From Pecten maximus (lineage: Eukaryota), in NCBI RefSeq assembly GCF_902652985.1, contig NC_047019.1, forward strand, positions 14,254,097 through 14,318,096: a stretch of 64,000 nt of DNA, in the 5' to 3' direction. The notes under the pieces are model-generated. The model did not search any database and was not told the DNA's origin. It was given only the letters and a program-made list of their open reading frames with translations. The translations under genes and the position numbers were made by a program. Shown piece by piece: positions 12,234-63,037 of the stretch. How positions within the stretch are numbered: position 1 is the first letter of the stretch; every line of letters starts with the position of its first letter.

Positions 12234-12246
12234 ATGTCGATGGACA
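12234..12246 (+). CDS. CHMP1: CHMP1 exon 1 (MSMD-, phase 1)
   Basis: aaaaATGTCGATGGACA|gtatcc. The frame is completed by exon 2 to give K. Confidence 0.6.
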
Positions 12247-18200: not shown

Positions 18201-20333
18201 TCTTATATAGCTAGGATTCCCTTGTTTGAAAAGTACTGGAGGGATGTCTCAATTTGCACAGATTAGTAAAATGAAGGGAAAAGTAGAGAAAAAATCAATC
18301 TGACATGGAACTTATGAAGATCATTCAATGGTGGGCGCCAAGATCCCTCTGGGATCTCTTGTTTTTCTGTTTAAATATGAAATCTAAGCGTTGTTCATCA
18401 TTTTAGGTTGCATTAAATCATTAAATTGAAGTCTATTAACATTACAAGCCTGTAATACAGATGTTTTGGGTTTATAGGTCACTGGATCCATGGCCGGTGT
18501 GGTGAAGTCTATGGAATCAGCAATGAAGAGTATGAATCTTGAGAAGGTAGGTTTATTTTTGTTCAAATGAAATTTTACAAGAATATTGTTGGCACTTGTA
18601 AAAAAAATTATAGATATACTTAACACTAAATATTTTCGCTACAGTCCATCCAGGATAGACGTCATGATCTCTGATTGGTCAATATTTAGACATTGAATTT
18701 TATGAAAATTTTTATGCATTTATATGGTGTATTTTGGGACTGTAAATAGTTGATTGGATGAGAAAGCAAATTCCTAGATATGTATCTGGCTATAAGCCCA
18801 TGTCTGCCTATAACAAACTACCAAATTTGATTAATGTTTATTGCATTTCAGTTAAAAAGCTTGTAGAAAATCAATGACATTTCATTGTCGAGCAATAAGC
18901 CCATTCTCTACCTCGAGTCCAAATTGATTTGTTAGTCACCTGGGCCTATCGCAGGATGACGTACAGTATTACGTTACAATTCAGTAGTGATGGGAATGAC
19001 ACCAGCTCAATGTGTGATGGTTCTAGTGTATTACCTGAAGTTATTTTGTCTTTAAAATGAAAATAAGATGTAGACATTACTTCTTTACAGATCTCACAGT
19101 TGATGGACAGGTTCGAACAACAGTTTGAGAATCTAGATGTGCAATCACAGGTGATGGAAGACACCATGAATGCATCGTCCACCCTTAACACACCTCAGAC
19201 GCAAGTGGAAGGACTGATGCAGGAGGTTGCTGACGAGGCTGGGTATGTACATCATCTTAGACTTGTTATATTTCCTAAAATAAACGGTAATCATGACGTT
19301 AAACATTTCTGTTAGGTTACTGGTCTACCTTTTATTTTGAGTTTTGATTGCATTATATATCAGTTCAGATGTGAAGTTGAGAGAAAGTCAAAAGACCGGT
19401 TAAACATACAGATTTAAGTGTGATTTTAACAAAGAATTAATATACATTTGTATTGAGCCATACATATTTAACATTAAAGACCATAGCTGTTGAAAGGTCA
19501 TTAAACAATACTATGCCAAACCTTAGGGCTATTCCAGCAAAATGCATACAGGTACCCTACGTGAGGACTCGAGAAAAAAACAAATTCTATACATGGTGGG
19601 TGTTGAAGAAAAGTGTGAGACAGTGGGAAGCAATCTTTAAATCTTGTTCTCATTAAATAAAATATGTGATTTGTGTTACAGTTTGGAATTAAACATGGAC
19701 CTTCCGTCAGCACAGTCATCCTTACCCTCTGGAGTAGCGTCATCAAATGCAAGTAGTGAGCAGGTAAGCTTGTGTGTAAATGGGCAGCATTATTACTGGA
19801 CAAGAACAGAAATTGTGGAGAAGAACTTGTATATATTTTGTTAAAATTTGCCTCTCATCCATTTTTCTGTTTTGACAATAAATTTCTTTAGATCAAATAA
19901 ACAAGTGGGTGTGTAAGAAATGGGGAAGTATCTATCATCTATTACTAGTTTTTAAAAGATTGGTCAGTTCTTGTTCTTATCATCTGTCTATTTTCTAAAT
20001 ATTGATTTATAAAATAACCTGGTTTAAAAAATACATTTTGGGGGCAAGAAACTTTGTTTGTGTTATTTTGGGGGATAGTTTATATCACTGATGCATTATT
20101 GAAAAATTGGTTTAGCAAATTTTCTTCATGAAAGTCTGATATAACATGTACTATTTCATAGCTTTTAAGTTTTTGTATCAGTATTTCTACCATACAATAC
20201 CACAACACAAAGAACTTTGCAGAAAAAATTCCTATTTCAATTTATTTGATGTAGTCTTTATCGATATAATAATAAATATGTTTCTTTTCTTTAGGATGAA
20301 CTTACACAGCGACTTGCAAAGTTACGGAATTGA
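12234..20333 (+). CDS. CHMP1: CHMP1 (charged multivesicular body protein 1, ESCRT-III). Complete gene with 7 coding exons plus a duplicated alternative exon 2
   Basis: Spliced translation MSMDKHLFNLKFAAKDLERNAKRSEKSEKEEKTKLKK|AIQKGNLEGARIHAENSIRQKNQALNYRRMSARIDGVAARVQTAVTMKQ|VTGSMAGVVKSMESAMKSMNLEK|ISQLMDRFEQQFENLDVQSQVMEDTMNASSTLNTPQTQVEGLMQEVADEAG|LELNMDLPSAQSSLPSGVASSNASSEQ|DELTQRLAKLRN*. This aligns along the CHMP1A/B proteins as I recall them. All junctions are GT/AG with consistent phases. Confidence 0.85.
13054..13151 (+). CDS. CHMP1: CHMP1 exon 2a (KHLFNLKFAAKDLERNAKRSEKSEKEEKTKLKK)
   Basis: Acceptor tatatag| and donor AAAAAG|gtaacc. It is 98 nt. Confidence 0.75.
13330..13700. repeat. 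Minisatellite with a unit of about 40 bp (atatggtaacaccacatggtcgtcatattaggtag), about 9 copies, in CHMP1 intron 2
   Basis: Direct tandem repeats are visible. Confidence 0.85.
13790..15060 (+). repeat. Satellite-carrying element. A 5' leader (hairpin ggtcacctgagacaaagtctcaagtgacc, then tattctaat, a (GTCC/CGTC)n microsatellite, then gtaaacaat) is followed by about 3.5 tandem copies of a roughly 316-bp unit
   Basis: Unit period measured between the gggcggggctaaaaagggtcaaatttactaaaacttcaa landmarks at 14049 and 14364. The same leader and unit family recur at 63296-64000. Minus ORFs 13915.., 14224.. and 14548.. are repeat translations. Confidence 0.8.
15480..15625 (+). mobile_element. tRNA-like SINE fragment of a different family (…GGTTCGATTCCTGTCAGGGCATTCAGCAGG…)
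   Basis: tRNA T-arm-like GGTTCGATTCC motif. It lies just upstream of CHMP1 exon 2b. Confidence 0.4.
15741..15838 (+). CDS. CHMP1: CHMP1 duplicated alternative exon 2b (QLFNLKYSARSLLRFANKCDKEERTEKRKLKK). Same length (98 nt) and phases as exon 2a
   Basis: Acceptor gtacag| and donor AAAAAG|gtgagt. It is a paralogue of exon 2a (LFNLKF/Y…KCDKEE…KLKK). Including both would shift the frame, which implies a mutually exclusive pair. Confidence 0.5.
16448..16594 (+). CDS. CHMP1: CHMP1 exon 3 (AIQKGNLEGARIHAENSIRQKNQALNYRRMSARIDGVAARVQTAVTMKQ)
   Basis: Acceptor ttgttacag| and donor AAACAG|gtatgc. It is 147 nt. Lies within ORF 16439..16627. Confidence 0.85.
16780..18360 (+). repeat. Satellite-carrying element of the pearl/Helentron-associated type. 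Leader (palindrome gcccaccatcatcagatggtgggc, then tattcaaatcgcc, then (CCGT)n, then gtaaacaat) followed by about 9 tandem copies of a roughly 155-bp unit, then a 3' tail
   Basis: Period measured between recurring acatggccgacaggcagccatcttggattttgacaattgaag at 16931, 17086 and 17241. A related leader plus a partial unit lies at 58950-60060. Minus ORFs 17515.., 17670.. and 17987.. are repeat translations. Confidence 0.8.
18478..18546 (+). CDS. CHMP1: CHMP1 exon 4 (VTGSMAGVVKSMESAMKSMNLEK)
   Basis: Acceptor tttatag| and donor GAGAAG|gtaggt. It is 69 nt. Confidence 0.85.
19091..19242 (+). CDS. CHMP1: CHMP1 exon 5 (ISQLMDRFEQQFENLDVQSQVMEDTMNASSTLNTPQTQVEGLMQEVADEAG)
   Basis: Acceptor ctttacag| and donor GCTGG|gtatgt. 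Lies within ORF 19100..19315. Confidence 0.85.
19682..19763 (+). CDS. CHMP1: CHMP1 exon 6 (LELNMDLPSAQSSLPSGVASSNASSEQ)
   Basis: Acceptor tgttacag| and donor GAGCAG|gtaagc. Lies within ORF 19644..19844. Confidence 0.8.
20295..20333 (+). CDS. CHMP1: CHMP1 terminal exon (DELTQRLAKLRN*)
   Basis: Acceptor ttctttag| and stop TGA at 20331-20333. Matches the CHMP1 C-terminal MIM motif (…DELSQRLARLR…). Confidence 0.8.
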   Translation, partial: DELTQRLAKLRN

Positions 20334-28500: not shown

Positions 28501-31500
28501 AAATATACAGGAACATCAATAATAATACTATGTTAATGAGAGCTGAAAATAAGTAGATAAAATATGTTAGGTTCAAAACTTGACAGTGTACAAAATATAA
28601 TTAAATTTTCTCTATTTTTCTTATATGGACAAGTCAATATTTTGTGGTGTACATGGCATTTATTTCAAAGTTGATAAATTACGTAAAGAAAACTTTTTTT
28701 TAGTTTATTCTAATAAGAGAAAATTATGTTTAAATAGGATGATAAAGGGTTATAGAACTATTTAACTTGCTCCACAGGAAGGAAAACCTGAGAAAATGGA
28801 ATGTTACTATGTTGAGACTTCGGAGGAAGCTACCAAGATGTACAGTTTTCTATACAAACAGCAGACAGACCCCCCAAATCTAATGGAGGTGTCCCATGAT
28901 GCACCTCCGAGGGGTGTGGGCACCTTGAATTTTCAAAAGGTTAGTAGATCTCTGAATTCAACAAATAATGTCAATATATTTATACAGCAAAATGAAGATT
29001 TTAACAAAATGACAGTTTTTAACTTACAATGGGAAGGTCCTGAAGTTATCAGTCAACTTAAAGATTTTCAAATCTCGGCGAACAAGAGTTATTAGATATA
29101 AATTGATATAACTTGTTTCTCAATTGTTGTAAATAAAGTTTATACAGATTTTCATTAAGGACGGTTTTTAAATGTTGATTTCATGGAAGCTAAATATGAT
29201 GTGCAATATGTTAAAGAGCTGTAATAAGAATCGTTATAATACTTCTTGATTTAACAGATGATGGTCACATTTGGACTAGAGAAAGCAGAGTTGTCCACCC
29301 CTGTCTGTGAACTAGTAGAGGGGATATGGAAGGAAGCTTACTCTGATCTGTCTGACATCCTAACCTCACCGAGCTCAGTCAAACTAGAACAGGTCCGTTA
29401 ACTACCACCACTGATACAAATAAATAAAATGATTTATCTGACATCCTAACCTCACCGAGCTCAGTCAAACTAGAACAGGTCAGTTAACTGACACCATCAC
29501 TTATAATACAAATAAATAAAATGATTTATTAAGATTTATTTATTTATTTATATTTCATTAATTAAATAATAGATTAAATTATAAATTAATTAATTAATCA
29601 TTTTATTTATTTATTTTGGGAAATGAATGTTTCTTCCTTTACTTTAATGTTATTTCACTGATGCTTCTGCTCCAGCAAATCCCAAAATTCCATTATGCTT
29701 TTCAATGTATCATTTCTGCCTCAGTTATTCTTCGCTGATCGATTCTTTAAGAAAAAAGGTTAGAAAACGGGAGATCAAAATTTAACTTAATAAATTAAAC
29801 AGGTTTGTACCAAACTAAGGTTAGAATACTACATCCCTGAAAGTGGCCTAGATTGATTAGGCCTTGTACATTGGACAATATTTTATGTCGAATGTTTTAG
29901 ATTGAGAAAGCTGAAGCATTGCTGATGAAGCTGAGAAGTCAACCAGAAGACAAAGAGTCTGTCCTTAGTGAGTTCTACTCCACTCTCCCACACAACACTA
30001 AGGTGTCTGTCAGCGGGGTGAACAATGCCTGGTTGTCTAGTGAGCAGGATATCTGTCAGGTAAGCACAGTCCGTCCGTATCATTTAAACATTGGCTATGA
30101 GATCACATGATATCTGTCAGGTAAGTACAGTTCATTTCATTTAAACATTGGCTATCTGATGTTAAGATAATGATATCTAACCTGTAATCTTCGATAGGTG
30201 GTTGGGTGGCACAGTGGTAACACACTTGCCCTTCACCTAAGCGGCTGAGGTTCGATTCCCTGTTCGGACGTGAAAAGGTATGGGGTCACCTAACCAACCA
30301 CGAGGGTTTTCCCTGGGTACTCCGGTTTCCTCCAACAGTAAGACCCCTCGTGCACTTCCATCCGGGCCAACAAGCGTGATTAATATAAGTTAATATAACT
30401 TGTTTCGCAATTGTTGTAAAATAAATAAAGTTTACAAACTTCGATGTAGCCCGAGATTCCTCTGGCCCTGACATCATGTCTGGTATCACATAATTATATA
30501 CTATATCACTACATCAAATTTTTCTTTTTTCGCTCCATTGTGCTATGATAGGGTGATTGGCGAAACCGTGACCTACATATATAGTTTGCAATATGGTGTC
30601 AAATCAAGTGTGAAATTTTGACCAGTGTAAAGCGAGGGTCTATACAGACAAAATAAAACATTGATACAGGACCATCTGGGTGTTTAGGGGTAGATAAATA
30701 TCTTATTTACCCATAAATGCAAGTTAGGTGTTATGTCATGCCAAATTTCATTTTATCTGCACCAAAATCTTACCAACACCAAACGATGTCAGAGAATTCC
30801 ACGTTTTCATATAGTAGTGAGCGCTGGCCTTACACCAGACATGGTATCAGGGCCAGAGGAAACTTGGGGCTTACTTTGATGTTAACTGACATTAACAATC
30901 AACATATTTTAGATTTTTTTTTTTTTTTTTCCAAACAGCATGAAATAGCAGGAAAGCAAACCCTGTGGATCTCTTGCTTTCGCGAAACAATAAACACGAA
31001 ATGTTGCATGTTCTATCAAAATACAGTGAAGCCAGCTCAAAGAAAAAATCATGGTTTGCTGATTAAAAATGAAAAAAAAATAATAACCATTTCCAGGACT
31101 TTTGATAAACCTTTGAGAAAATTTTGGCTCTCTAAAATTAATTTTGAAGTTTTGGTTTTAGTTGAATTTTTTTTCTATTTGACACATATTTTGAACTTTC
31201 TTTTGCTGGAAATTGTGGTTTGACTCCCATAATTGATGTAAGTCAATGAACAACTGAAGACCCCCGATTTAAGGTTGTATATCTAAATGTTTTTAAGGTG
31301 ATGAAGGACATGCTGACGGTCAGTGAAGCTACCGGCTGGTCACTTCGAGGGTCAACAGAGTCCAAGTACCGTGCCCTTAGGTGTCAGATAGAACATAGAG
31401 CCCCTGATCACCATGTGTACAAGACTGTCAAGGCCCTCGTTAACAAATCCCTGGATGGGTATATACTTTTTTCCTGATCATACAGTAGATGTAGAAATAG

Positions 31501-34500: not shown

Positions 34501-37500
34501 TCTTAGATATACATAAATTGTTACTGACAAGTCAGTGTAATGATTTCCTGCCTTTGAAATGGAATTTCACAACTGAAAAGGTAAACTTTTGAACAGAAAC
34601 AAATTATTTTGGAAACTGTGATGGATTCTTATTATATCTTTTATACAAATCTGGAAAATACATGACATTCATGATCAGTCAATTGTTACACTATCACGAC
34701 TTGAGATTTTGAAATATGACCTTTACCTTTTAGACAAGGTCACCCTCCTCTGCTGAAGAAGAAACAAAATGATAGAGTATAACCTTGACATTTTACAAGA
34801 AAGTCATAAACTTGTACCTTGTAAAGCATTTTACAAATTATGACAAAAAAACAAAACAAAAAGCATTATAATTTTGAAATAATATTAAACCAGTGTATTA
34901 TGTTATATAAACTACATGTTTTAGATCTAAAAGATGTGAAAGATGTATTGGACCCCATGTCAAAGGTCAAATCGGGACTGGTGGCTGATGGGAAGGAAGT
35001 TAATCCTGTGGAACTAGAGGATGTAAATGTATTTGCTAAAATGATGGATCTTGTGGCAGAGGTAATCAATTTTTATGACAAATGATTGTGTAAACTGGTG
35101 TTATTATAACGAGAAAAGAAAAAAAAAATTTCTTGTTAATATTTTATATGCATTTGACAACTGATTAAAAAATGAAAATTCCATGCAACTAAACATTTCC
35201 CCTCTATATGATCTAATAATTCTGGGTTTTAGAAAGTTATAATGATAAATCAATTCTACTATTGATTAGTGTTATCTGGTATCATATAAAATGGAGTGGT
35301 GACCTTGACATTTTAGACAAGGTCACTCCCCTCTGCTGAAGAAATTGATATCAGAGTATAACCTTACATTTTAGGAGAAAGTCATAAACCTGTATAGTAA
35401 CTAATATGTGGTAATTAAAAGATCATTTAAATTTCACAGAATTTTCATGGAAATTAAATAAAATAACTACCTGAGATTTTGAAATATGACCTTGACCTTT
35501 TTCAGGTGAAGGTCTTACAAGTTTACCACAACAAGAGTAACGAAATGTTGGAGGGGAAGTATGTGTTCCCTCTAGACGAGATGGCCGCAGTGTGTGGGTT
35601 TGAAGCTTACATCAATGACAAGCATGTGGTAGGGGAGGTGAAGGAAAAAGAGACGGCACACAAGGAGTACAAGAAGGCCATTAGTGAGGGCCATGGAGCC
35701 TACCTCATGGACCAGGACGAAGAATCACCGGTATGTTTAAAACTTAAGCAGTTTCATATTAAAGAAGTTATGAAGTATCATTTCAGTGGCAAATTCTGGC
35801 AACAATATGTCGTCTGATAAAATTGGAAATGGTTTCTTTTGCCTTAGATTAATTTTTGAGCATATTTACATTTTGCAAGACTTTGTCTGGTTTTCTTTTG
35901 TTGTTTTTTTCGTTTTTTTTTTTTTTTCAATAAATAAATTTAAACCAAATGTGTATAAGATGGCACTTTCTTTACTGTATAGGGATGTATTTATGTCCCC
36001 ACCATGAAATAAGAGGGCATATACGTAGTGTTACCCATGTCCGTCCCGTCCCGATGTAAACTGTAACTAGCTATTCTCAGGAACTGCTGATGTGATGCTA
36101 ACCAAACTTTGTATATATAATGGGTATAATGTCGTGTTGTCCACCTAACCAAACTTTGTATATATAATGAGTATAATGTCGTGTTGTCCACCTAACCAAA
36201 CTTTGTATATATAATGAGTATAATGTTGTGTTGTCCATGTAACTCTTTATTCACGGATCAAACATCCAATACATCTGACATTGTTGTGTTTCGGGGTGTT
36301 TATTGGCAATATATCTTCTAATAGATTTTTACTTTGGATCTTACTTTTAATTACCATTGATAAGTAAAGAGTTCTTAATAATCTACCTTATACAAAATGT
36401 GAATGAGGAAGTTTTGATGTAAAGCAGTATTTCAGATGAAGTATTTGATAAATATAGATGATGGATTAGAATTGATGTCCTATATATATTGATATCTATA
36501 ACAATATATCTGTGTTATTTTGTAACCTTCACCTCTGATGTCCTATATATATTGATATCTATAACAATATATCTGTGTTATTTTGTAACCTTCACCTCTG
36601 ATGTCCTATTTATATCTATAACAATATATCTGTGTTATTTTGTAACCTTCACCTCTGATGGCCAATATTATTATATATTGATATTTATAACAATATATCT
36701 GTGTTATTTTGTAACCTTCACCTCTGATGTCCTATATATATTGATATCTATAACAATATATCTGTGTTATTTTGTAACCTACACCTCTGATGTCCTATTG
36801 ATATTGATATCTATAACAATATATCTGTGTTATTTTGTAACCTTCACCTCTGATGTCCTATTTATATCTATAACAATATATCTGTGTTATTTTGTAACCT
36901 TCACCTCTGATGTCCTATATATATTGATATCTATAACAATATATCTGTGTTATTTTGTAACCTTCACCTCTGATGACCTATTGATATCTATAACAATATA
37001 TCTGTGTTATTTTGTAACCTTCACCTCTGATGTCCTATATACAGTCAAACCTCGATGATTCGAACTTCGTTGATTCGAATTTCTCGCTGTATCGAACTTT
37101 TTGCTTGGTCCCGAATTTTCTCACTATATAACACTACTAACGAAACTATGTATGATTCGAATTTTTATAAATCGAAGTTTTCGATGTATCGAACTTTTTT
37201 CATGACCCGTTAGCTATGATATTATAGGTAATTGACATCTCATGATTCGAACAAAAAATTTACCTGTACTGACCACTGGACAGGTGTTTGTCGTGACCCC
37301 TGCGGCAAGATTTCACACCTCTCCCCCAAATGCCCTGACTGACAATAGGGATAACGATAGCGTGTGTTGTCACTCCCGGTCATGGGGTTTATTAATAATC
37401 AGATCAAATTGATAGATAAAAAGTGTATTTAGAAGCCATGACATTTAATCGCTCCGGTAAAACATTTCGGTAGTCGTCTCTGATCATCTCCGCCGCCATT

Positions 37501-40500
37501 GAAATCAGCGTTCGGTGAGTAAATTTTACGGAACTATAAAACAACCGGACCATTTTTAAACACGAACAATTAGCGATGGCTTCACTCATATTCAAAGTGT
37601 GACGTTTCAAACTTATACATAAATATCCAAGTAAATCGATTATTTGTCATTCAATCATGCATTCTCCAACCGATCGGCATTCCGTATTTTATATGCACAT
37701 AACGTAAACGCACGTGTCTTTAGCAGAAAAGCCTAACGACTTACGTAAGTGTGCATTGTACTTCTTTTGTTTTATCTGTTAAACGCGATATAAGTGTTTT
37801 GTAACCGATACATATTCTGTTTAATTATCAAGAAAACATCGATCTATTGTCAACCATGAATAATTCGAAGTCCCGCTGTATCGAAGTTTTTCTGTTAGTC
37901 CCTTGAACTTCGAAACATCGAAGTTTGACTGTATATTGATATCTATAACAATATATCTGTGTTATTTTGTAACCTTCACCTCTGATGTCCAATATTATTA
38001 TATATTGATATCTATAACAAAATGTCTGTGTTATTTTGTAACCTTCACCTCTGATGTCCTATTGATATCTATAACAATATATCTGTGTTATTTTGTAACC
38101 TTCACCTCTGATATCCTATTTATATCTATAACAATATATCTGTGTTATTCTATAACAATATATCTGTGTTATTTTGTAACCTTCACCTCTGATGTCCTAT
38201 ATATATTTATATCTATAACAATATATCTGTGTTATTTTGTAACCTTCACCTCTGATGTCCTATATATATTGATATCTATAACAATATATCTGTGTTATTT
38301 TGTAACCTTCACCTCTGATGTCCTGTATATATTGATATCTATAACAATATATCTGTGTTATTTTGTAACCTACACCTCTGATGTCCTATTGATATCTATA
38401 ACAATATATCTGTGTTATTTTGTAACCTTCACCTCTGATGTCCTATATATATTGATATCTATAACAATATATCTGTGTTATTTTGTAACCTTCACCTCTG
38501 ATGTCCTATAATGAAGCTTATGTATATAAGCTAAGTTTAAACTGACAAATCATAAGTCTATGTTTATTAATTCATATATTAATAAACCTTGATCTTTATA
38601 ATTATCAAGAAGTACTTGTGAGGCATATTGACTTATTCAGAGTGATACAATATAGATAGGCCCAAGTAGGGCCAGTTTGTTGACGGTTATGATATATACA
38701 GTATCGGGGCCGGGCAGGCCTAGGTCAATAAGTGATTTGATTGGTCAACAGAATTTGGCAAGCATCTTTTGTTTTAGTGGGGAATGGCTAACGCAGCGTT
38801 TTAATCAGCAATTTATAACCACTCATCTACAACATCTACGAATTTAAATCATGGATATTTCTTACGGTACAAGACTTCAGCATTTGAGATTCTCTCTATT
38901 TGAGAAGTTTGCAGACTGTGGATTGTTTTAATAGCAGTTGCTGAAACCACTTTTGTTCGGACCCTTTCCCCCCCGAGACCCGAGACGATGGCATCGACAA
39001 GGCAGGACAATACTTCATCCAGCAAACGCAGGAACCGATCTAATAATACGCCTTGGGACTCTAACAACCCAAAAAATTGGACTATCCAAAGACTAAAAAG
39101 TGAACTGGAAAATTTAGGAATTCACGGCTCATTCATGGGTATGACCAAAACGGCATTACGCAATCTCTACTTGGACAATGTGAATAGAGGAACCCAATCA
39201 ACGAACTATGAAATATTACCTCGTGTGAATAATGCTTCCGAGGAAGATCTTGGTAATAATGAGACTGACGATTTACCGTCAAGTAGTGCTTCACAACATA
39301 ATTCTAATGTGACCGAGGAACTACGTGCAGAAGCGGACCAAATCGCACAGTCATCCCAGTCAGGTAGTGATCAGTCGGCCCGTGCAACATCCCCGCCTGG
39401 TGGCGATAGCAGCAGCACAACGCGTAGGGATATTTCCAATATGGCGGCGCCCATGACAGATGTGCAAAATTTACAAAAAACGGTCATCGAGCTGCAACAA
39501 ACTGTGATTTCGATGATGAATGGCAGGAATACAAACCGTGAAATCACCAGTGGACATGCTTCCTCAGGATTTACATTATCTACAGCTATGGCGGCGATGA
39601 GGAACAATGAATGCGATAGCAACAGGATCTCTGCCACGTCAATGAATCCAGGTGGGTACAGTCTACCTCGTTCAAAATATGGCGTACCCGCCGAATGTAT
39701 TCCACATGTCGATGTCGTATCGGAGAACACACAAAGGAAGATATGGGAAGGTAGAGATATCAATCTAGCTAGCCTGTTAATTCCCTGTTTTGAGACGTGT
39801 CGGAATGCCGGTGACGATTTCGGGGGGTTACATGGTATTACTATAAACATAAATCAGAATGAAGATCGGGATCCACGCCTGAATAAAGCTTTGAGCATAG
39901 CAGAGTTCATTACTGCGTTTGGAAAATACAAAAGAGTACTGTGTACAAAATTCCCGGACCGCAGACCAGAATTAGACACATACGAGGCTAACATTATAGA
40001 AATTTCGAATATTTATGGCCCTCGTTTCTACGATTACCATTGCCAATTTTCTGCAAGGGCAGCAGCAGCATTGAGGGATAACAACATTAAAGTAGATTGG
40101 GCAGTGAAAGACAATGGCCTACTGAATATGGTTATTGGTAATACCAAAGCCAATACTTGCAATTTGTGTGGGTTGACTACTCATTCAACACCCTTCTGTC
40201 CACAACAGCGTAACAAATCGTGGAATAACAACAAACAGCAACAAGGGCGAAAGGATGTGGATAAGCATGGCCGTCCTAAAATCAAAGTCAATGGCCAAGA
40301 AGTTTGTAACAATTTCAACAACGGTAAATGCACACGGGGAGACAATTGTTTCTTTGCACACGTGTGTTCCAATTGTCAAGCCAACAACCATGGAGCTAAT
40401 GCGTGTAAGAAAAACAAACAACAATGACAAACGGTTATGCCTGACAGGCCCTCTACACCTTTAAACATTGAGAGGTTAGCCGAAGAATTACAGAACCATC

Positions 40501-43500
40501 CCGACAGGCATTTCGTGGACTATTTAATAGAAGGACTTAAGCAAGGTTTTGATACAAAGGTGTCAACTACCTCTCTTCCCACTAAGGAATGTAAGAACTT
40601 ACAATCTGCCAACAATAATGCTGCCATAGTAGATACTCTTATTTCCTCCGAGTTAGAGAAAGGGTTTTTATGTGGACCATTCCAACGACTTCCATTTGAG
40701 CATTACAGAGTCAGCCCCATTGGAGTTGCTATTGGGAAATACTCAAAGAAACCTCGATTGATCGTGGATCTATCTTCCCCTCATGAAGATACTGATCATC
40801 CATCCATCAATGAACTTATCGACAAAGAACAATGTTCATTAAGCTATGTTAAGATAGACGATGCGGTTAATATAATTCAATCATTAGGAAGAAATACTAC
40901 AATGTGTAAAACTGATATATCAGACGCGTTCAAACTGATACCTATTCATCCTAGTCAGTGGCATTTATTTTGTGTTCAGTGGAAGGGAAGCTATTATTTT
41001 TATAACAAGCTAGCATTCGGGTGCAGATCAAGCCCTAAGATTTTTGACACCCTATCAGAAGCCGTGTGTTGGATAGCACAGCACAATTACGGAATTTCCC
41101 ACATCATGCATTTGTTAGACGATTTCATCACTTTCGATGGCCCAGGCGTATGTGGGGAACGCAACATGGCTCTACTTTACCTGATTTTCAACAGATTAAA
41201 TATTCCCATGGCCAAACACAAAACTTGTGGACCAGAAACTGTCATAGAGTATTTGGGTATTATTTTGGATTCTATCAATATGGAGGCACGGTTACCAGTG
41301 GACAAATTGGTAAGAATTACAGAATTCTTGACTGACTTCCTAAGTAAGTCATCGTGTACCAAGAGGGAGATGCTACAATTGCTTGGTCACCTCAACTTTG
41401 CAAGTAGAGTCGTGATACCCGGTAGAGCATTCGTTTCCCACCTGATTCGATGTTCTACCACAGTTAAACACCTTCATCATTATATCAGGATAAACAATGA
41501 TTGTAGAGAGGATATTAGAATGTGGAGGCAATTCTTACTACATTGGAATGGTGTGTCTATGTTCTATAATACGCGAGTTATAACTTCTGATGACTTGCGT
41601 CTGTTCACAGATGCATCAGGTACTCGTGGATTTGGCGGTATATTTCAACAAGAGTGGTTCGCTGAACCATGGCCTACAAGTCTACGTGAATCGGTGTCGC
41701 AAGTAGATGAATTATCTATCGCGTTTAAGGAACTTTATCCGATTGTGGTAGCAGCATTATTGTGGGGTCACAAATGGGTTGGCCAGCGTATCGTATTTAT
41801 GTGTGATAACTCTGCTACAGTGGCTATTCTTCAGAAAGGCCGCTCCAAATCAGCTCACATTATGCCACTTATGAGAAGACTAACTTTGTGTGCTGCCACT
41901 CATAATTTCTGCATATTATCTAAACATGTCCCAGGTAGACACAATGTGATTGCTGATTCTCTGTCTCGATTACAGTTGCAGAAATTTCGACACCTGGTTC
42001 CAACAGCCTGCAAGTACCCACGCACAGTTCCAGCTCCAGCACACATCTTGTGGAGCTCCAGCCTGTAATTAAGGAGTTGTGGGATTCCGCGATAGCTCCC
42101 AGCACCAGATCGACGTATCAGACAGGTTTCAACTTGTTTATTAGATTCCTTCTAATGACAGGTGTTATAGTGTGTGCAAGTGCAGTTAAAGACATTCGTG
42201 TGACAGAAGACTTGTTGATTTATTTTGCCGCGAATTGCTTCACTAATAACTTATCTTACAGTACAGTTAAACTATATATTTGTGGCATTCGTTTCATGTG
42301 TCTTCAACAGAACATTAGTTATCCAGTCGGAACAGACTTGCCTCGTCTTTTTTCCATCATGAATGGTATCAAAAGATCACAAGCTAAGCCTGTCAAACCA
42401 CGTTACCCTGTTACATTTACGATTTTGAAACAAGTTTGTGACTTCTTGAGGAAGAACAATGGGAATTTCAACGATTTGTTATTGGAAACGGTGTGTACAG
42501 TTGCATTTTTTGGTTTCCTTAGATGTGGGGAGTTCACTGTAAATAACAATTTTGACTCTACTATTCATTTGTGCATGAAAGACTTAACCATTTTACAAGA
42601 TTGTGTGGTGTTGACACTGAAGTCGTCAAAAACTGACCCCTTCAGGAAAGGTATAGCCATTAAATTGTTCAAAATTGATCATGATATTTGCCCACATAAG
42701 GTGTGTAGCAAGTATGTCGCAGCAAGACTCATCATTTGTCATGGTCCGTCTCCAGCAGATCCTTTGCTTGTGACTCGAGATGGCAATGCTTTATCACGTT
42801 ATACCTTTATTAATATGTTTAAGCACACTCTAAAATGTGTAGGTATTGACCCAACAAATTATAATGGGCATTCATTCAGGATTGGCGCAGCTACTTCTGT
42901 GGCTGCTGTCAGCATAGAAGATCATATGATCAAAGTTTTAGGAAGATGGTCATCTGATGCCTACTGCAGATACATCAGAACGCCACAGGATGCCATTAGG
43001 CAAGCTCAGAAATCTATGGTATTGGCTAAAGGTAATGTTAATTAGGGTATAGCTTAACAATATATAGCTTATACCCCTAATTTACCTATAACATTTACTA
43101 ATATTTTTGGGGCACTCAGTTCAATTCAGTATCATTTAACTGAGTCTTGGACTCTCATTCAAAATTTTAATAGATTCAATTTTTCTTTTCATCCCCAAAA
43201 AATTATACTTGAGAAATCTTTACATTATATTGCAAGTATTATATTGTTATCATACTATTCCTACTGCTTTTTGCTGATGTATCATCCGAGGTACATAGGT
43301 GGAGAATAAGGAATTCATTTACAAATTAAGTTACATATTAATTATTACTTAAATCTTATTCGGAAGTATGTACATGCGTGTAGCTCAGCAAGCTACAACG
43401 AATGAGATTTAGGTATATTGTTTTCAACCTGCTCAAAGTCAGTTTTTTGGAACTCACCATTCCTTATTCGGACCTGTAGCTCAGCAAGCTTCACCGAGAT

Positions 43501-46500
43501 GAGGAATAGTATAAACGGGATGAATTATATTATCTTACTGCTGTATGACTGATTCCGCATCCAGACCTGGTAGCTCAGCAAGCTACCCTGTGATGGGGAA
43601 TTCGGCTCAATCCTAGTTAAGTTCAGATGTGGTCCTCTTCTGCATTCATATACTCATCAGTATAATCTAGCCAAGTACTGTTCATCCTCTCATATTGTTG
43701 ACGGTCTGCTAGACTCTTAGATGAGGACTCATACTGGACTCTAAACTATCTTTCTCCTGGGTGTCAGTTACCATTTTTTATACATGTATTTATCGTTCAA
43801 TCCAGGAGAAAGATATTTAGTTGTTATAATATATATATAGTAACTGAGTTGCCCTTTTTGCCAAACAATATATATGTAATAAGTTTAATAATATGTTCTG
43901 TTTGTTAAATGGAAATTGTCAAGTTCAGTCATGTTTTATGCATACAATAAATGTATATATGTTTATATCTGTCTTTTTGTGATTTGTGCAGTTTAAAATG
44001 AAGCTTATGTATATAAGCTAAGTTTAAACTGACAAATCATAAGTCTATGTTTATTAATTCATATATTAATAAACCTTGATCTTTATAATTATCAAGAAGT
44101 ACTTGTGAGGCATATTGACTTATTCAGAGTGATACAATATAGATAGGCCCAAGTAGGGCCAGTTTGTTTACGGTTATGATATATACAGTATCGGGGCCGG
44201 GCAGGCCTAGGTCAATAAGTGATTTGATTGGTCAACAGAATTTGGCAAGCATCTTTTGTTTTAGTGGGGAATGGCTAACGCAGCGTTTTAATCAGCAACC
44301 ACCACCATCCCCTGCCACCAACCAGATTTTTAACTACCGGTTTTAATTAACCTTTTCAGTGGCATGGGCATTGGAAGCGAGAGATAGTTAAAGCTTTATA
44401 CATGTTACATGATGATGTTTTCTATCTAGATATATGACACTCTTAACTATGGTGTTTTGTTTTGTTTGGTTCTTGGAGCAGTTACGATGTTAATAAATTT
44501 GGGACTTTTATGCTCATTCAATTGATGACTGAACTCTCATTCAAAATGTAATGATTCAATTTTCTTTCTCCCCAAAAATTTACTGAGAAATCTTACACTA
44601 TATGCTAGATTATATTGTTTTCTTCCCACGCTTTTCTGAGTGTATCATCCAGTACAGGTGCAGTTAGGTCATTTAAATTATTCATATTTTTACTTAACAT
44701 TTTTGGAAGTCATGTACATGCGTGTAGCTCAGCAAGCTACAAAATGAGATTGGGTATTGTTTTCAACTGCTCAAGTCAGTTTTTGGAATCCACATTTTAT
44801 TCGTGTACCACACTTTTACAAAATGAGATTTTTATAAAAGATACTTAAAAATTGTTTCTGTTTCCGCATCAATGGGAAATCCCGTGATGGGGAATTGGCT
44901 CTTCCCATTGTTGTTGGTCTGGTTCCTCCGGTACTCGTTTCTCCATAACCTCCCATTTTAAAGGTCCGGGGGGTTAATAGGATTAAGGGAAAAAAAAATT
45001 TTTCCCTTTTGTCATAAAAGTTTTATACTTCAAAAGGAAAAAATTTTTGTATTTTTATTGAAATAATTTCTTTTCAAAAATATTCTTTTTAAGTTAATAT
45101 ATTTAAATTTTTTTGAATTTTAAATTCAACATGTTTTTGCTTTTAAGTTTATTCAGTTCTTTTTTTTGTGATTTAAATTTTTACAAAATTGTGTTTTTTT
45201 TAATTTCGAGCGTTTAAAAAGAATTTAAAAAAGTGTTAATTTGAAAATTACCGGGGAAATTTCAAAAAGGGGGGGGAACAATTTTTTTCAAAAATGTAAT
45301 TGGGGGTTTTTTTCCCCGGGATATTTTAAAAATTTGGAAAGGGTTTTTTTGGGGGTTTTTTTTTTGGAAAAAAAGGGGAATTTTGGGGGGGGAAAAAAAC
45401 CCATAAATAAGGGAAAAACCTTTCCCTTTTAAAAATGGATTTTTAAAATTTTTTAAAAAAAAGTTTGTAACCTTCACCTCTGATGTCCTATTTATATCTA
45501 TAACAATATATCTGTGTTACTTTGTAACCTTCACCTCTGATGTCCTATTGACATCTATAACAATATATCTGTGTTATTTTGTAACTTTCACCTCTGATGT
45601 CCTATTGACAGGATGTTTTTACTGTAAGTGTGGGGAATGTTCCTGCCAAAGCTACTGTTGTCATCAAGATCACCTATGTCACAGAGCTGCAGGTTGAAGG
45701 TGACCTTGTCAGCTTCCGTCTCCCAGGCACCTTAGCACCATGGAAACAGAACTCTCAGAACACTGAGGTAATTATACAACCAAACCATAAAAAAATACTC
45801 TTGAAAGGAAAAATCACAGATAAAAATTCCATTGTGAAAACTGGACAGTTTGTCAACCCTTAACTGTGAACAAATTGTATCATCTCTATGACAATACATG
45901 ATTGTGTAAGGGAGACTGGACTGATGTTATAAAGAATTTTATCATGATTTTATGAGGAAAATTAACAGGTAATATGTATGTTACTACAACTGTTACAATT
46001 GACTATACAGTGAAACCTGTCTATACCAACCACTGCCTTGAATGACTTTCTGTAACATCCAACCATTGTCAACAGTGGCAAAATGCTCAACTGTCATGGC
46101 TGATACTATATTGTCTCTCTGTTATATCTGACACGTTTACTCAGTCCTGTACACGTTCAGTTAGGTCAGGTCTCTCTATACATGTATCCTTATTTTCTAC
46201 ACAGGATATCGAATGCACTGTCATGGTAGCTGTGGACATGCCCTTTGACCTCAAAAATATCCACAGCCCAACTCACAAAATTATGATTGCGGTATGTATA
46301 TAAACCTACTTATATGTTTATGTTCAGTTCTTCATTCCTTGGAAATCGATTCCGACATGTTTGGTTACTGTGATATTCCAACACTTAAATCACTATAAAT
46401 TATGACCTTTTTTTTCAAAAGAAATGAAAACAGATAACCAAAAAGATTGATTTCTAGCTTTTGAGCCATTACAATATGGAATATTCATGTAGGTGTGCAG

Positions 46501-52500: not shown

Positions 52501-55500
52501 CCCCCACAACGAAGTTAGGGGGTATACTGGAATCAGGCCGTCCGTCCGGCCGTCTGTCTGTAGACACATTTTGTCCGGACAACTCCTCCTAAACCGATGG
52601 GCCAATTCCAATGAAACTTCACACAAATATTAATGTTCATGTGTAGATGTGCATGCCACTTTCTTTTTCTCAAAATAATGGTTGCTATGGCAACTGGTCA
52701 CTATATTACTTGGTTATCTTAGTTAGCCTCTAATTTACAGTTCGAATTCACCATTGACTCGTGCAGATTGTGGATGTATTAGTCAGCCATCCTGGCGACA
52801 GTTCTAGTTCACATTTGATTAGCCAAACGCAGATCTAGTACTGGGAACCCCGATATGAATTCACATTTGATTAGCCAATCACAGATCTAGTACTGGGAAC
52901 CCCGATATGAATTCACATTTGATTAGCCAATCACAGATCTAGTACTGGGAACCCTGATATTAATTCACATTTGATTAGCCAATCACAGATCTAGTACTGG
53001 AAACCCTGATATTAATTCACATTTTATTAGCCAATCACAGATCTAGCTCTGGGAACCCTGATATTAATTCACACTTGATTAGCCAATCACAGATCTAGTA
53101 CTGGGAATATGTTTTTCATCCACAATAGGTGGGTGTTATTCAACCCCAAGGCACCAGTTAATCATTACAATTGCTGTATAACATACACTTTATACAATGT
53201 ACGTATGCATTTGGATTGGTCCACACAGCGAAATTCAAATGTGAAGGCCATTTCATCATATCCTTATGCCCCAGATGTGGAAACGCGAAAATGATACCCC
53301 ACAAAATATAGCTGATATACAGTATTAAATGATCTAGATCAACACTAATGTAAAGTTACATTAGTAGTAGGTGAGCAATACAGGCCCATTGGGCTTCTTG
53401 TATATTGTGGTAGAAACAGGTCACACAAACTGTTGTGTGTGATATTTCTTTCACTTTTGTTAGTCATTAGTCCCCTACTGGTGACTATAAGTTGTGTGAC
53501 CATCGTCTTGTACCTATATACAAAAACGTCAAATTTTGTCACTGCTCTAGTCGCTTCATGCCTTGAGGGATTTTGATCAAACTTCACACCATGATAAATG
53601 ATCATTATATCTCTGACAAGATTGAGTTTGAGGGTTTTTGGGTCAAGGTCAAAGTCACTTTACTATTTATATTGGGGGCCAGTAGGGGAAGTGTATTACT
53701 TTAGTAATATAACCCAGTATGCTTTGTTAATCAGAAGTTACAAAAATACAATGTAGCAAATTTAGTCTAGTTCTTGATAATCAATTTCTACATAAACCAT
53801 GCCAGGTTGTCTTGTATATACTGTATATACACCGGATAGCTGCTGTATTTCAGGATGAAAAAATGACCTCCGCTCCAGATATTGAGGAACTTTTGGAAAC
53901 AGAACATCGAGATGTGTGTGCGTTTCTTGGTCCAGACATTAGTCCAGATGAGTTGATGGACGTTCTTTCATCGGATGTAAGTCATTGAGAAAAAAATCTT
54001 GCTTTTAAAATGTAAGCTGATTACTTTGTGCATCGGTACATAATTCATTGCAAATTGTAATTTCTGTATATTGTATAGACAAGAAAATGTAGGCACGTCA
54101 CCAGTTCATCTTTGCACTTGTATTCATGCTCAGTCATGCTTTAATATTTGAACACAAAAATAGATTCACTTACAGTAATGTATCTCGCCATGCTTCTGAA
54201 TTTTGCCAAATTTGGATTTTACTTAATACAAATATTTGATGGGACTACTGTATGCCACAGCTGTGTCTAAGTTGTAGGCATACACTGATTTAGTCTGTAT
54301 TTATCTACACTGCTACACATTCTGAGACATCTGATTTATTCGGATATTTCAGAGAGTCTTGTCGGATTTTAAGACTGTTGCTGTATACCATGGCAGCGAC
54401 ATATTCTGTGGATGGTTTTAGATAATTCCTTTTATACATGTTTGACTACCTGCCCTTACATCTTTACCTTTTGTCTGATGGTCCTTTCCACAAGTTTAGA
54501 CTTGTACACTAAATGGGAGTTGTCATCATCATTTCACTTTTTGATGTTTGGATCAGTTACTCAGAAAGTAGAAGTCCTACTTTAACCAAACTTGGTATAA
54601 GGTTAGGTCATATTAAGGACACGCCGTTCATTTACTGAATATCGTCTATAATTCATGGTCCAGTGACTCTGGATATTAGGAATTCGGGGTATTTTGACTT
54701 CAAAGATTTGTGTTCAGCTCAGTTTCTCAAACAACATCAATGTTATTCCGACCAAACCTCAAAGATTTGTGTTCAGCTCAGTTTCTCAAACAACATCAAT
54801 GTTATTCCGACCAAACCTGGAATATAGTTGTAGTACATATTTCTATTGCAATGTATCAAATTTGATATTAAACAAATGCCTGTAAGTTAAGCAGGATGCT
54901 TTCATACTGCATAATTTCTCAGGAGAAGCGCTTTATTGCTCTTTTCCTTTTTCTTTTTCAAAAAAAAAAAAAAGAAAATACAGAAATCTATTGAATTTTA
55001 GAATAGGTTAAAAGTTACTATACTGAAAAAGTGGGACAGGGAAGACATACAATTACAAGTACATCATGAAATTCTTTTTTTATTTGATTCAACTCCACAA
55101 ATATGACCGACATTTATATAAAATTACTTGGCATGTTCATATCCTAATAAGTTTCTGAAATTGTAGTACATTAGGTATAAGCTTTATGTGATGGCTGCTG
55201 AGGAGGAGGAGGAGGAGCTTCACAATCATTGATTACATATGTCATCACACTGGGTAATATTAAATCTTGGTTTACAGGATACAGAATCTTTGCACAGATA
55301 CTTAACTGACGAATCATCTGATGAATCATCTGATAGTGTAAGTTTCTGTTTTATAATTCAATTATACCTGTAGTATGATGTATTTTCCAAATTTTATCTA
55401 ACATGAAATCCCACACATGTAATGATGTATCTAACCATTCCTGTAATCCATACATGTAATGATGTATTTAACCATTCCTGTAATCCATACATGTAATGAT

Positions 55501-58500
55501 GTATTTAATTATTCCTGTAACCCATACATGTAATGATGTATTTAATTATTCCTGTAACCCATACATGTAATGATGTATTAACCATTCCTATAACCATACA
55601 TGTTATGATGTATTTAACTATTCCTGTAAACCATACATGTTATGATGTATTTAACTAGTCCTATAACCATACATGTTATGATGTATCTAACCATTCCTGT
55701 AATCCATACATGTAATGATGTATTTAACTAGTCCTATAACCATACATGTTATGATGTATTTAACCATTCCTGTAATCCATACATGTAATGATGTATTTAA
55801 CTAGTCCTATAACCATACATGTTATGATGTATTTAACTAATCCTATAACCATACATGTTATGATGTATTTAACCATTCCTGTAACCCATACATGTTATGA
55901 TGTATTTAACCATTCCTGTAATCCATACATGTAATGATGTATTTAACCATTCCTGTAACCCATACATGTTATGATGTATTTAACTATTACTGTAACCCAT
56001 ACATTTAATGATATTAACATTTGTATGACATTGTCAATATAAAGCCTTTTTGAGAGTTGTGTCGTTGATGTTTGTTTAAGTGCCATGCATCACGCGACAG
56101 TATCAGCGTAGTAATACAACACAGACCTGCGCAATATTTTGGTCCGTGCAAATATACTGAAAGCATTATTATAGATAAATTTGAGCAAAAATACATTTTT
56201 GTCTAATAATTTATTATGAGAAAACATGCCATATACTTTGTTTGTAATAAATGTAGAATATAATAAATTGTTGGGTTATTTTTTCAAGCACTATTTTGTT
56301 GCCGATTTTGTTTGCCAATCAGCACGAGACATGAAGGCTGTTCCAGTTAACGACTAAAATTAGTGTTGCCTGTTGGTAACGCGGGAATTATGAATTTTTT
56401 AAACATGACCTGTCAAAGGGAAAAAAATCAAATCGTTGGAAAATGTAAATATAACCGTTGAACTGTTTTTGTATGGCATTTATGATCTATTTGAACGACA
56501 GAGCTTTGCAAGCAAACAAATCATAATGCGCTAGCATGCATTATGGTGTTTGCTTGCAAAGCTCTGTCGTTCAAATAGATCATAAATACCATACAAAAAC
56601 AGTTCAATGCTTAAATGTATTTAATTTTTCCTGTAACCCATACATGTAATGATGTATTTAATTATTCCTGTAACCCATACATGTAATGATGTATTAACCA
56701 TTCCTGTAACCCATACATGTAATGATGTATTTAACTATTCCTGTAACCCATACATGTAATGATGTGTTTAACCATTCCTGTACCCTTACATGTAATAATG
56801 TATTTAACCATTCATATACCCCATACATGTAATGATGTGTTTAACCAATCCTACCTTCGTTAGCTTGTGTGTAAGTTGTCTTTGTTTCTTTCTGTATCAT
56901 GTGTGAATACTTTGTGGAAAATCTTAATAGAAATGTTAAGTTAAATAAAAAAAAAGATTTATTTTGTTCAAACTGACTAAAGGTTTTATGTATAAATCTA
57001 TCCTGTGTTACATGCAAATCTATCTTTGTTTGTGAAAATGACCTGCATTCCATTAAAACTTAACTTCCATTATATATAAGTTTCTACTGACTTTGTATGT
57101 CTTATGATAACATACCTGATAACCTCCTCGATGCCAAACAGGTCATGCTAATACATTATGATACATTGAAGTGTAAATAAGACAATGCCTGTATCAGACA
57201 AAGGTTAGATGCCAAATTTATCATCAAATAAGCCCCATTCATAGTGAATCTCCAATGTTCAGATGTTTGTACCAACAAGTCTAACTTATGCTTTAAGTTC
57301 ATCACATTTTAAAAAGAGTCTTGTTTATAGGGAGAATTTGAAGAAGAGGGAAAAGGTCAATCTTACCGACGTGTACGTGTAAGTGTACTATTTATTTATT
57401 AATATTTCAGAATGCTGAAAATATATCCTAGAATTTTTAGACCAAAAAAATTCTTCTGAGGTTTCTGCATCTTTATTGTTTTCTCTAAAACAAATTCCCA
57501 GATCTCTTGAGTTTTTTTTCTGTTGCCATTAATATATGATGCCTGACAATTCTTGCATACAATTTTGTGTACACATTCTGTAACCTCCTGTCAAATAGAT
57601 AACAATCTCCTACATATTCACACCTTAGTTACTCCTTGGTGTACCTACATATATTTGACTGGTCATTTGTGTGATGAAGGGTATATATAGCGCAGTCACT
57701 GAAACAAAAATGAAAGCTGAAACTGAAAACGCATAAAATCTAATACTGATTGTGATATATAGAGGATATCTAACAGTGTCTTCAGTAATACCAAATATAT
57801 TTCACGAGTGGGGCTAATATTTTGATATCAAATATCAAATATCAAAATATTAGCCCCCCCTCGTGAAATATGTTTGGTTTTACTGAAGACACTGTTAGAT
57901 ATTCTGTTTATTACATTTTATTATCAACGAAAATCCTACTGCGTATGCTAACTAGGACAGCGATAATTTGTAAACAAAAAAAGTAGTTTCCCCTGTCCAG
58001 GTGCTGACATATATGTCAGGCTTTCTGATTGGTCAATTATTTTGGTATTTTCTAATCATTAATTTGATTGGTCAAATCAGCAAAAGTGATATTCTTCACT
58101 AGTGAAAAATATCACTTTTATAGAATGAATAATTTTTGATATTTTACTGGTAAAAATGTAATAAATGAACATCTATCACATAACTGGCTCTTATAATCAA
58201 CCTGAAGAAAAGGTTTCATTATAATTTATAAAGCTACTAAAACAATTTAAATTTTCAGGCATAATATCCAAATACTGTGTGAGCATGCATATGTCCTGCG
58301 AAAGTTCATAATTTGAAAGATTGGTTTAGAGAGTTTATCTGAAACCAAGCATTCTGCAAACAAGATATCAATTTCTAAATATGGGAATCTCAATTTATAT
58401 TATAACTACGCCTGTATCACACCTGATTTGCTACATGATACAATTAGTAACAATGTGTTGAGTTTTTGTTTGGGTAAACTTTTCCATGAATGGGTGAGAG

Positions 58501-60060: not shown

Positions 60061-60469
60061 TAGTTTGAAGTGTGATTGGAGGTTAAAATGAAGTGTTACT
60101 AGGCCCTCTCTATGTTGTCTAATTGGTGTGGATGTTCAAAGAAACAGAATCTAAGTTCACATTGAATTCCCCCACTGTATAATGCATTAGGAGCAGGTGA
60201 TAAGGTAAAGGAGGATGTGGAGAATGTAGCAACTTCAAAGTCAGCATATGTAGAGGTACAACAGTGTTTGTTGATGAAGCGTTTACAATGTGGTCTCTGT
60301 AATATTATTGCATAATTTCAAATGACATAAAAAATTATGGTGACATATCCATCCGTATGTGATATTTCTTTAGACCAATACCTTGAGAGTGCCGTCATCT
60401 TTCTTCATGAGAAGGGTGACATGGAAAGGGCACATTGCCATTTATTTCTTCCTCTGTGCTGTTATCATT

Positions 60470-61440
60470 GGTTTGATATGTTCTCACCTTCTGAGGTCCT
60501 TCCCTGACCTACATTGTATACGTGGTTTGATGTGTTCTCACCTTCTGAGGTCCTTCCCTGACCTACATTGTATACGTGGTTTGATGTGTTCTCACCTTCT
60601 GAGGTCCTTCCCTGACCTACATTGTATACGTGGTTTGATGTGTTCTCACCGTCTGAGGTCCTTCCCTGACCTACATTGTATACGTGGTTTGATGTGTTCT
60701 CACCTTCTGAGGTCCTTCCCTGACCTACATTGTATACGTGGTTTGATGTGTTCTCACCGTCTGAGGTCCTTCCCTGACCTACATTGTATACGTGGTTTGA
60801 TGTGTTCTCACCTTCTGAGGTCCTTCCCTGACCTACATTGTATACGTGGTTTGATGTGTTCTCACCTTCTGAGGTCCTTCCCTGACCTACATTGTATACG
60901 TGGTTTGATGTGTTCTCACCTTCTGAGGTCCTTCCCTGACCTACATTGTATACGTGGTTTGATGTGTTCTCACCGTCTGAGGTCCTTCCCTGACCTACAT
61001 TGTATACGTGGTTTGATGTGTTCTCACCGTCTGAGGTCCTTCCCTGACCTACATTGTATACGTGGTTTGATGTGTTCTCACCTTCTGAGGTCCTTCCCTG
61101 ACCTACATTGTATACGTGGTTTGATGTGTTCTCACCGTCTGAGGTCCTTCCCTGACCTACATTGTATACGTGGTTTGATGTGTTCTCACCTTCTGAGGTC
61201 CTTCCCTGACCTACATTGTATACGTGGTTTGATGTGTTCTCACCTTCTGAGGTCCTTCCCTGACCTACATTGTATACGTGGTTTGATGTGTTCTCACCGT
61301 CTGAGGTCCTTCCCTGACCTACATTGTATACGTGGTTTGATGTGTTCTCACCTTCTGAGGTCCTTCCCTGACCTACATTGTATACGTGGTTTGATGTGTT
61401 CTCACCTTCTGAGGTCCTTCCCTGACCTACATTGTATACG
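60470..61440. repeat. Satellite with a 54-bp unit, about 18 copies (ctacattgtatacgtggtttgatgtgttctcacc(t/g)tctgaggtccttccctgac), with two alternating variants
   Basis: ORF 60383..61519 (378 aa of MCSHLLRSFPDLHCIRGL repeats) is a repeat translation. The unit is a multiple of 3, so the frame stays open. Confidence 0.9.
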
Positions 61441-61499
61441 TGTGTTCCTAATGTGTGTCATCAATGTTCCACAAACAAAGGGACAGCAGGCAATAATCA

Positions 61500-62880: not shown

Positions 62881-63037
62881 CAATACCTGTGCTGAAACTT
62901 TATGGACAGACAGTATCTTAAAAAGTGAAATATGTTGGTGTCTACACAAATTGTAGAATATCCCTGAAGTTTTAGATTTGGAGGTCTGTTCTTACAATTT
63001 CTACAATAAGATCTATCTCACTCTATATTACTTTTAG

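Follow-up and report, generated by a model that had tools for sequence, protein, structure and literature searches.

A PARP4 intron of the scallop Pecten maximus, probably enlarged by a minisatellite and two transposable elements

Introduction

In transposon exonisation, repeats contribute splice signals to genes, Alu-derived pyrimidine tracts and acceptors being an example. Here, we analyse an intron of a PARP4 gene in a 64,000-nucleotide stretch of the genome of the bivalve Pecten maximus (assembly GCF_902652985.1, contig NC_047019.1, positions 14,254,097 to 14,318,096 of the forward strand; hereafter, the window, in which all coordinates are counted unless another locus is named). This intron holds a tandem array that abuts the downstream exon, a non-autonomous element bounded by terminal inverted repeats (TIRs) and a Ngaro-like retrotransposon. 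Ngaro elements are tyrosine-recombinase retroelements without a methyltransferase domain, which sets them apart from DIRS1 and PAT; initial descriptions came from zebrafish, sea urchin and fungi, and in the mollusc Lottia gigantea 53 instances have been counted (PMC4157794). Among tandem arrays of bivalves, DTC84 of Donax trunculus is reported to be linked to a mobile element (PMC3879986).

The scallop locus resembles each of these systems in part. Like Ngaro, the retrotransposon encodes, in this order and on one strand, a gag protein with a zinc finger, reverse transcriptase (RT)/RNase H and a tyrosine recombinase; it has no methyltransferase open reading frame (ORF), carries an internal copy of its 5′ terminal repeat downstream of the recombinase and has many homologues in bivalves. 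Unlike in Ngaro, however, the B1 and B2 repeats are 80% alike rather than identical, B2 is offset by 215 bp from the A2 repeat, and the 3′ end of the element is unreadable; the label “Ngaro-like” reflects ORFs, domains and repeats. The TIR element is comparable to MITEs (miniature inverted-repeat transposable elements) of the Tc1/mariner type in its inverted termini beginning with CAGT, its TA target-site duplication and its lack of coding capacity, but, at 890 bp, it exceeds the typical MITE size. As with intronic minisatellites and DTC84, the array is short, consists of near-identical monomers of ~60 bp and lies in a gene-rich region, whereas, in contrast to DTC84-type arrays, it has no MITE arms, abuts an exon, contains acceptor-proximal signals and is confined to a single locus in the window. 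Finally, as in exonisation, a repeat covers the branch point, pyrimidine tract and AG of an acceptor (the use of which we infer here), but the exon and the intron position appear to be ancestral, no new exon has arisen, and the repeat may simply copy native signals.

Results

The gene is, judging by its domain architecture, the P. maximus orthologue of PARP4. Pfam matches to translations of exons joined by hand reveal, in one gene on the + strand, the ordered set of domains that defines PARP4, namely, BRCT (~25.4-26.4 kb, E=4e-14), the PARP catalytic domain (~31.9-34.4 kb, E=2.5e-33), VIT (34.9-45.8 kb, E=2.6e-37 with an upstream exon included) and vWA (VWA_3, 48.2-50 kb, E=5.6e-11). In the orthologous loci of three related genomes (L001-L003), the PARP exon likewise lies upstream of the VIT exon. 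The intron in question separates two VIT-domain exons of the + strand, both matched by Pfam VIT: exon A (35506-35730; 75 codons, ending in ...DQDEESP), with 81-83% amino-acid identity to the orthologous exons in L001-L003, and exon B (45612-45767; 52 codons), which is followed by GT at 45768. Once joined, the two peptides cover Pfam VIT from end to end without a gap (E=4e-34).

The intron itself spans 9881 bp (35731-45611), from a GT donor (GTATGT) at 35731 to an AG acceptor at 45610-45611, in the context cctattgacag/GATG. An intron is present at the same codon in all three relatives (GT...AG/GA[CT]GT, with both exons placed), but its length there is 1663, 356 and 990 bp, respectively. Homologues without an intron at this junction read through as ...GHGAYL..EE.P[DE]VF..S[VI]GN..., and in many relatives, exon-sized gene calls end in ...DQDEETP, followed by V (that is, GTn). 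By comparison, then, the assignment of the acceptor is well supported, and splicing would be expected to use GT 35731 and AG 45610-45611. The position and phase of the intron appear to be ancestral, and its size appears to be derived (0.36-1.7 kb in the relatives, 9.9 kb here). A preliminary description of this locus had considered the intron to be almost entirely repeat-derived and the protein reading to be unbroken across it, had read the acceptor as above and had named a comparison with orthologous introns as a check. All of this holds: ~94% of the 9881 bp is repeat, transposon or unreadable sequence, the joined peptide matches VIT without a gap, the acceptor reads the same again, and the comparison finds the position kept in three relatives at lengths of only 356-1663 bp. 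We therefore consider it likely, with a probability of about 0.8, that this is an ordinary PARP4 intron that was enlarged from ~1 kb to 9.9 kb by a minisatellite and two transposable elements.

The first part of the intron (35731-36097, + strand), which includes the donor GTATGT, is unique, with a single copy in the window. Further downstream, a tandem array is distributed over three blocks, at 36473-37041 (9 full cores, with spacers of 5, 11 or 17 bp, and no AG dinucleotide), 37932-38509 (9 full cores and one internal partial duplication) and 45466-45611 (+ strand; 2 full cores and partial ends, with the presumed branch point, pyrimidine tract and acceptor AG). The unit of the array is a 52-bp core, TCTATAACAATATATCTGTGTTATTTTGTAACCTTCACCTCTGATGTCCTAT, joined to a TA-rich spacer of 5, 11 or 17 bp; the 20 full cores (9 + 9 + 2) have 0-2 mismatches each, and the periods obtained with Tandem Repeats Finder (TRF) are 57, 63 or 69 bp (reported as 63/120 in block 1). 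The “52-bp satellite” of the preliminary description is thus a real tandem repeat with an invariant 52-bp core, but its period is different; the readable array totals only ~1.3 kb, and “minisatellite” is the more cautious name. Elsewhere in the 64-kb window, no further copy of the array was found, nor did we find a 57/63-bp repeat described in the literature on P. maximus satellites. A search in protein space with the open frame of the array gave zero matches, which is weak evidence, the P. maximus genome not being gene-called in that manner there.

At the downstream edge, similarity to the array unit extends to 45610, the A of the acceptor AG, with the consensus having T where the G stands. 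The monomer contains no AG, and the 146 nt before the acceptor are free of this dinucleotide, so that the array offers no competing acceptor. We rejected the notion that the AG-free monomer is significant as such: ~1.7 AG are expected per 63-bp unit, and zero is unremarkable given the repetition. The acceptor-proximal pyrimidine fraction is 0.68, compared with 0.55-0.68 in the orthologues, and yTnAy motifs are located at -22 and -15 relative to the acceptor.

Blocks 1 and 2 are separated by a non-autonomous TIR element of 890 bp (37042-37931), with termini CAGTCAAAC... and CAGTC...GACTG ends. The TIR arms (37037-37068 and 37905-37936; 32 nt, 91% complementary) have the sequence CAGTCAAACCTCGATGATTCGAA, and TA flanks the element at 37040-37041 and 37932-37933, forming the target-site duplication. 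Excision of the element together with one TA yields ...CCTAT-atatattgata-TCTATAAC..., which is exactly the commonest 63-bp monomer. The TIR element is, hence, a clean, TA-targeting insertion into the spacer of one repeat monomer. It contains no ORF of more than 60 aa and has no further copy within the window. The same terminus, TA/CAGTCAAACCTCGATTATTCGAA, preceded by TA, is found upstream in the PARP4 locus of L001 (1556-1595), a different bivalve genome, indicating that this TIR family is common to several genera. The termini further resemble what we take to be pogo/Tigger-type ends (CAG..A.ACCTCG), which we regard as a lead only.

Between blocks 2 and 3 lies the Ngaro-like tyrosine-recombinase retrotransposon (38510-44298), recognised by its ORFs, Pfam matches and direct repeats and inserted, as are all of its parts, on the + strand, in the sense orientation relative to PARP4. 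It opens with direct repeat A1 (38510-38811, 302 bp), followed by a gag ORF (38988-40427; 479 aa, with a CCCH zinc finger, Pfam zf-CCCH), the RT/RNase H ORF (ORF2, 40437-42068; 543 aa), the tyrosine recombinase ORF (ORF3, 42050-43045; 331 aa), which overlaps the end of ORF2, a 3′ region (43046-43993) and direct repeat A2 (43997-44298), which differs from A1 at 1 of 302 positions. The RVT_1 match in ORF2 (E=5e-8) is above the Pfam cut-off, and TDAS and CDNSA motifs of RNase H were recognised by eye only. In ORF3, a weak Phage_integrase match (E=3.6e-4) falls below the cut-off, and R158, H274-x-x-R277 and Y305/Y308 are invariant across three members of the family. We detected no methyltransferase in the element, with ORF2 showing RT only and no further ORF of at least 100 aa. 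More than 1000 homologues of the retroelement were found in bivalves. The element looks intact and young, and its ORFs, its lack of a methyltransferase and its A repeats agree with Ngaro as defined in the literature (PMC4157794).

Over its entire length, the RT ORF matches the RefSeq “uncharacterized protein LOC117314606 [Pecten maximus]” with 100% identity; a look-up of the genomic location of that protein returned no record. LOC117314606 is the RT ORF of the retroelement annotated as a host gene nested in the PARP4 intron, and the next-best database match is 78% identical.

An intact retroelement in the sense orientation could be more than simply tolerated, affecting the expression of PARP4 through premature polyadenylation, cryptic splicing or silencing. 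The element is indeed on the PARP4 strand, where it presents 4 AATAAA and 3 ATTAAA motifs, and the single difference between A1 and A2 in 302 bp speaks for its youth. However, such motifs are expected by chance at 36% GC, and other large retroelements reside in neighbouring introns of the orthologous PARP4 loci, so that we consider an effect on expression improbable.

The left edge of the retroelement, at 38507-38510, coincides with the core/spacer boundary of one array monomer. Relative to the monomer, the two insertion points agree in phase to within 3 bp. We do not regard this shared phase as significant, given a chance of ~0.1 and given that TA targeting explains the position of the TIR element. 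The preliminary description had the TIR-bounded element splitting the array at 37037-37937, the retroelement entering at 38507, after the TIR element, and the satellite resuming at 45466. The arms of the TIR element are confirmed, with the element proper at 37042-37931 and excision restoring a monomer, and clean repeat does restart at 45466. For the retroelement, the left edge and the identity as a tyrosine-recombinase element stand, whereas the right junction lies in corrupted sequence and is unreadable. The proposed order of the insertions is unproven: the two elements occupy different monomers, neither being inside the other.

The organisation beyond A2 is less regular. At 44299-44899 (+ strand), 215 bp unrelated to the element precede a diverged, ~80% identical copy (B2) of its segment 43132-43470 (B1). 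A canonical B2 directly after A2 was found neither in the window nor in a related element at another locus, L004. Because B2 is both diverged and offset from A2, the 3′ end of the retroelement is undefined. Possibly, 44299-44899 is a remnant of an older related copy, in which case the element would have integrated beside its own kind. The family may depart from the textbook A1-B1-A2-B2 layout, as the element in L004 suggests. In that element (4027-13054), the RT of which is 66% identical, the direct (A) repeats are 1.58 kb long, with 99.9% identity, the 3′ region is tandemly repeated (765 bp twice), and there is no detectable B2 after the second repeat. As a separate observation, a palindromic motif, GTAGCTCAGCAAGCTAC, occurs four times in the 3′ region of the retroelement (43380, 43476, 43570 and 44724) and is reminiscent of a tRNA D-arm. 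The GTAGCTCAG motif of this region was tried as a tRNA and rejected, ARAGORN finding none, and tRNA and Rfam scans of 35-46.5 kb yielded a single sub-threshold miRNA match and nothing meaningful.

The adjoining 566 bp (44900-45465) are stretched in homopolymers and uninterpretable. All four bases occur in inflated runs: the mean run length climbs from ~44.8 kb onward through 1.64, 1.85, 2.13, 2.17 and 2.38 to 4.17, compared with ~1.4 elsewhere, and drops to 1.27 exactly at 45466, where the clean repeat restarts. In this stretch, the share of bases that repeat the preceding base rises to 0.63, against 0.287±0.049 window-wide. After homopolymer compression, 44880-45465 was compared with the 3′ tail of the element and with the repeat; the best score, 78 (repeat), should be read against null scores of 47±11, the highest of which was 83. 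The P. maximus assembly was built with wtdbg2 from PacBio continuous long reads (CLR), gaps were filled by spanning reads during Arrow polishing, and heterozygosity is 1.71% (PMC7191990). Thus, 44900-45465 is probably an assembly artefact, a gap filled from noisy long reads, a link to the assembly method that we infer. As a consequence of this corruption, the right junction of the retroelement is unreadable and the true length of the intron uncertain.

The fault could reach further, the assembly at ~44.3-45.47 kb being materially wrong, either because the consensus is chimeric where a contig ends or because the retroelement is present on one haplotype only, so that the real allele or alleles differ. 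The abrupt end of the anomalous 566 bp at clean repeat, the assembly procedure and heterozygosity just mentioned, the discontinuous phase of the repeat and the poor fit of the 215-bp segment and B2 with a young element would all suit this explanation. Conversely, the left junction (38509/38510) and the element, with its intact ORFs, show normal quality up to ~44.9 kb, and both exons are in the correct order and orientation; the RefSeq annotation of the RT ORF points the same way, although it derives from the same assembly and is not independent. On balance, we regard a material error as a serious possibility, but not as the probable one.

Several other features of the window deserve mention. 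The intron also contains a separate 47-bp minisatellite with 3 copies (36098-36240; 97% matches in TRF), which is unrelated to the main array and begins its run of copies upstream of it, at a distance of 230 bp. Short tandem arrays are unusually numerous in the window: at least 14 unrelated units were counted, their periods ranging over 27-324 bp, and several lie within introns of PARP4 (1-415, 13446-13631, 14022-15032, 16902-18100, 52808-53107, 55411-56852, 60469-62885 and others). At 29344-29529, an 86-bp tandem duplication in 2.1 copies comprises the terminal ~48 nt of a PARP4 exon, the GT donor and ~38 nt of intron, creating two candidate donors, at 29393 and 29479; with the second, the exon would gain 86 nt and the reading frame would change. 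Upstream of PARP4, ORF fragments at 13044-13163, 15731-15859 and 19067-19312 have what we take, by eye, to be a CHMP1-type ESCRT-III look, and an N-terminal exon-like piece occurs twice among them. In the orthologous loci, one or more introns that follow VIT exon B accommodate a Pao/BEL retrotransposon in L001 (12787-17277) and, in L003 (11648-12456 and 17357-20441), a mariner transposase and a related tyrosine-recombinase retroelement with an RT that is 58% identical.

Discussion

The enlargement of the PARP4 intron probably results from three ordinary processes. A minisatellite with at least 20 full cores in near-identical monomers has come to occupy the 3′ side of the intron as far as the A of the acceptor AG, possibly through in-place amplification of the native intron end in which the AG was retained by the final copy. 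A TA-targeting non-autonomous TIR transposon of the Tc1/mariner or pogo type has entered the spacer of one monomer, and a young, sense-oriented Ngaro-like retrotransposon has entered another, where it now adjoins a diverged fragment of a related element. With splicing from GT 35731 to AG 45610-45611, the branch point and the pyrimidine tract would lie within the last repeat monomer.

Not all of the evidence sits easily with this scenario. The support for the use of acceptor 45610-45611 is comparative only. The phase of the repeat is discontinuous across the retroelement, the left break following core position 52 and the right block starting from ~26, and the right junction between retroelement and repeat falls in corrupted sequence. 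Furthermore, B2 (290 nt) is only 79.6% identical to B1 (339 nt) over 343 aligned columns and is split from A2 by 215 unrelated bases. Finally, the array exceeds an exact multiple of its unit by 15 bp and has a sharp 5′ edge, neither of which simple duplication predicts, and L001-L003 are too distant to polarise its origin.

The source of the array is the least certain part of this history. We give roughly even odds to in-place amplification of the native intron end, the most economical origin, and slightly favour it over the import of a foreign repeat because local tandem duplication, including that of splice-junction sequence (29344-29529), is common in the region. The preliminary description had the final satellite monomer supplying the polypyrimidine tract and AG, so that splicing depends on repeat-derived sequence. 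In line with that reading, the array could have been imported or have spread toward the exon, a pre-existing satellite or a mobile element carrying the repeat having replaced the native pyrimidine tract. That the repeat does reach the splice signals is correct, given the similarity up to 45610, but it may have been amplified from the native signals rather than having supplied them. Import would account for repeat similarity within 1 bp of the exon and for 3′ intron ends in the orthologues that are unrelated to the monomer, and repeat-carrying MITEs are known in bivalves (PMC3879986). However, outside the exons and the one TIR match, L001-L003 share no similarity with the window, so that these loci cannot polarise the origin of the array, and they are too distant to inform on the 3′ intron ends. 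Moreover, the monomer has no further copy in 64 kb, no transposon termini bound the array, the protein search with its open frame came back empty (weak evidence, as noted), and insertion 1 bp from an acceptor with splicing preserved is itself unlikely. We therefore deem import unlikely.

A more elaborate version of in-place amplification can be envisaged, whereby the array consists of copies of the native branch-point/pyrimidine-tract module. The acceptor would then be preceded by at least 20 decoy 3′ splice regions that lack AG, selection against loss of the AG would pin the spread of the array at the exon edge, and the TA-rich spacers would serve as a landing pad for transposons. This proposal is a long shot; if true, it would offer a natural experiment on the number of upstream copies of the branch point and pyrimidine tract that an acceptor can tolerate as decoys. 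An acceptor working from within a tandem array would be mildly interesting but is unproven, and it would be unsurprising, as repeats often adjoin splice sites.

That an intron with a conserved junction is inflated by transposons and a minisatellite is nothing out of the ordinary and matters little beyond annotation. In this respect, the locus draws attention to corrupted sequence, probably a filled gap, within a gene of the reference assembly, and to an apparently intact Ngaro-like retrotransposon in P. maximus that RefSeq lists as the host gene LOC117314606. Beyond that, if the enlargement occurred as we propose, this PARP4 intron is a clear, datable bivalve case of an intron growing through minisatellite amplification and two transposon insertions, by ~6- to 28-fold when compared with the orthologous introns.

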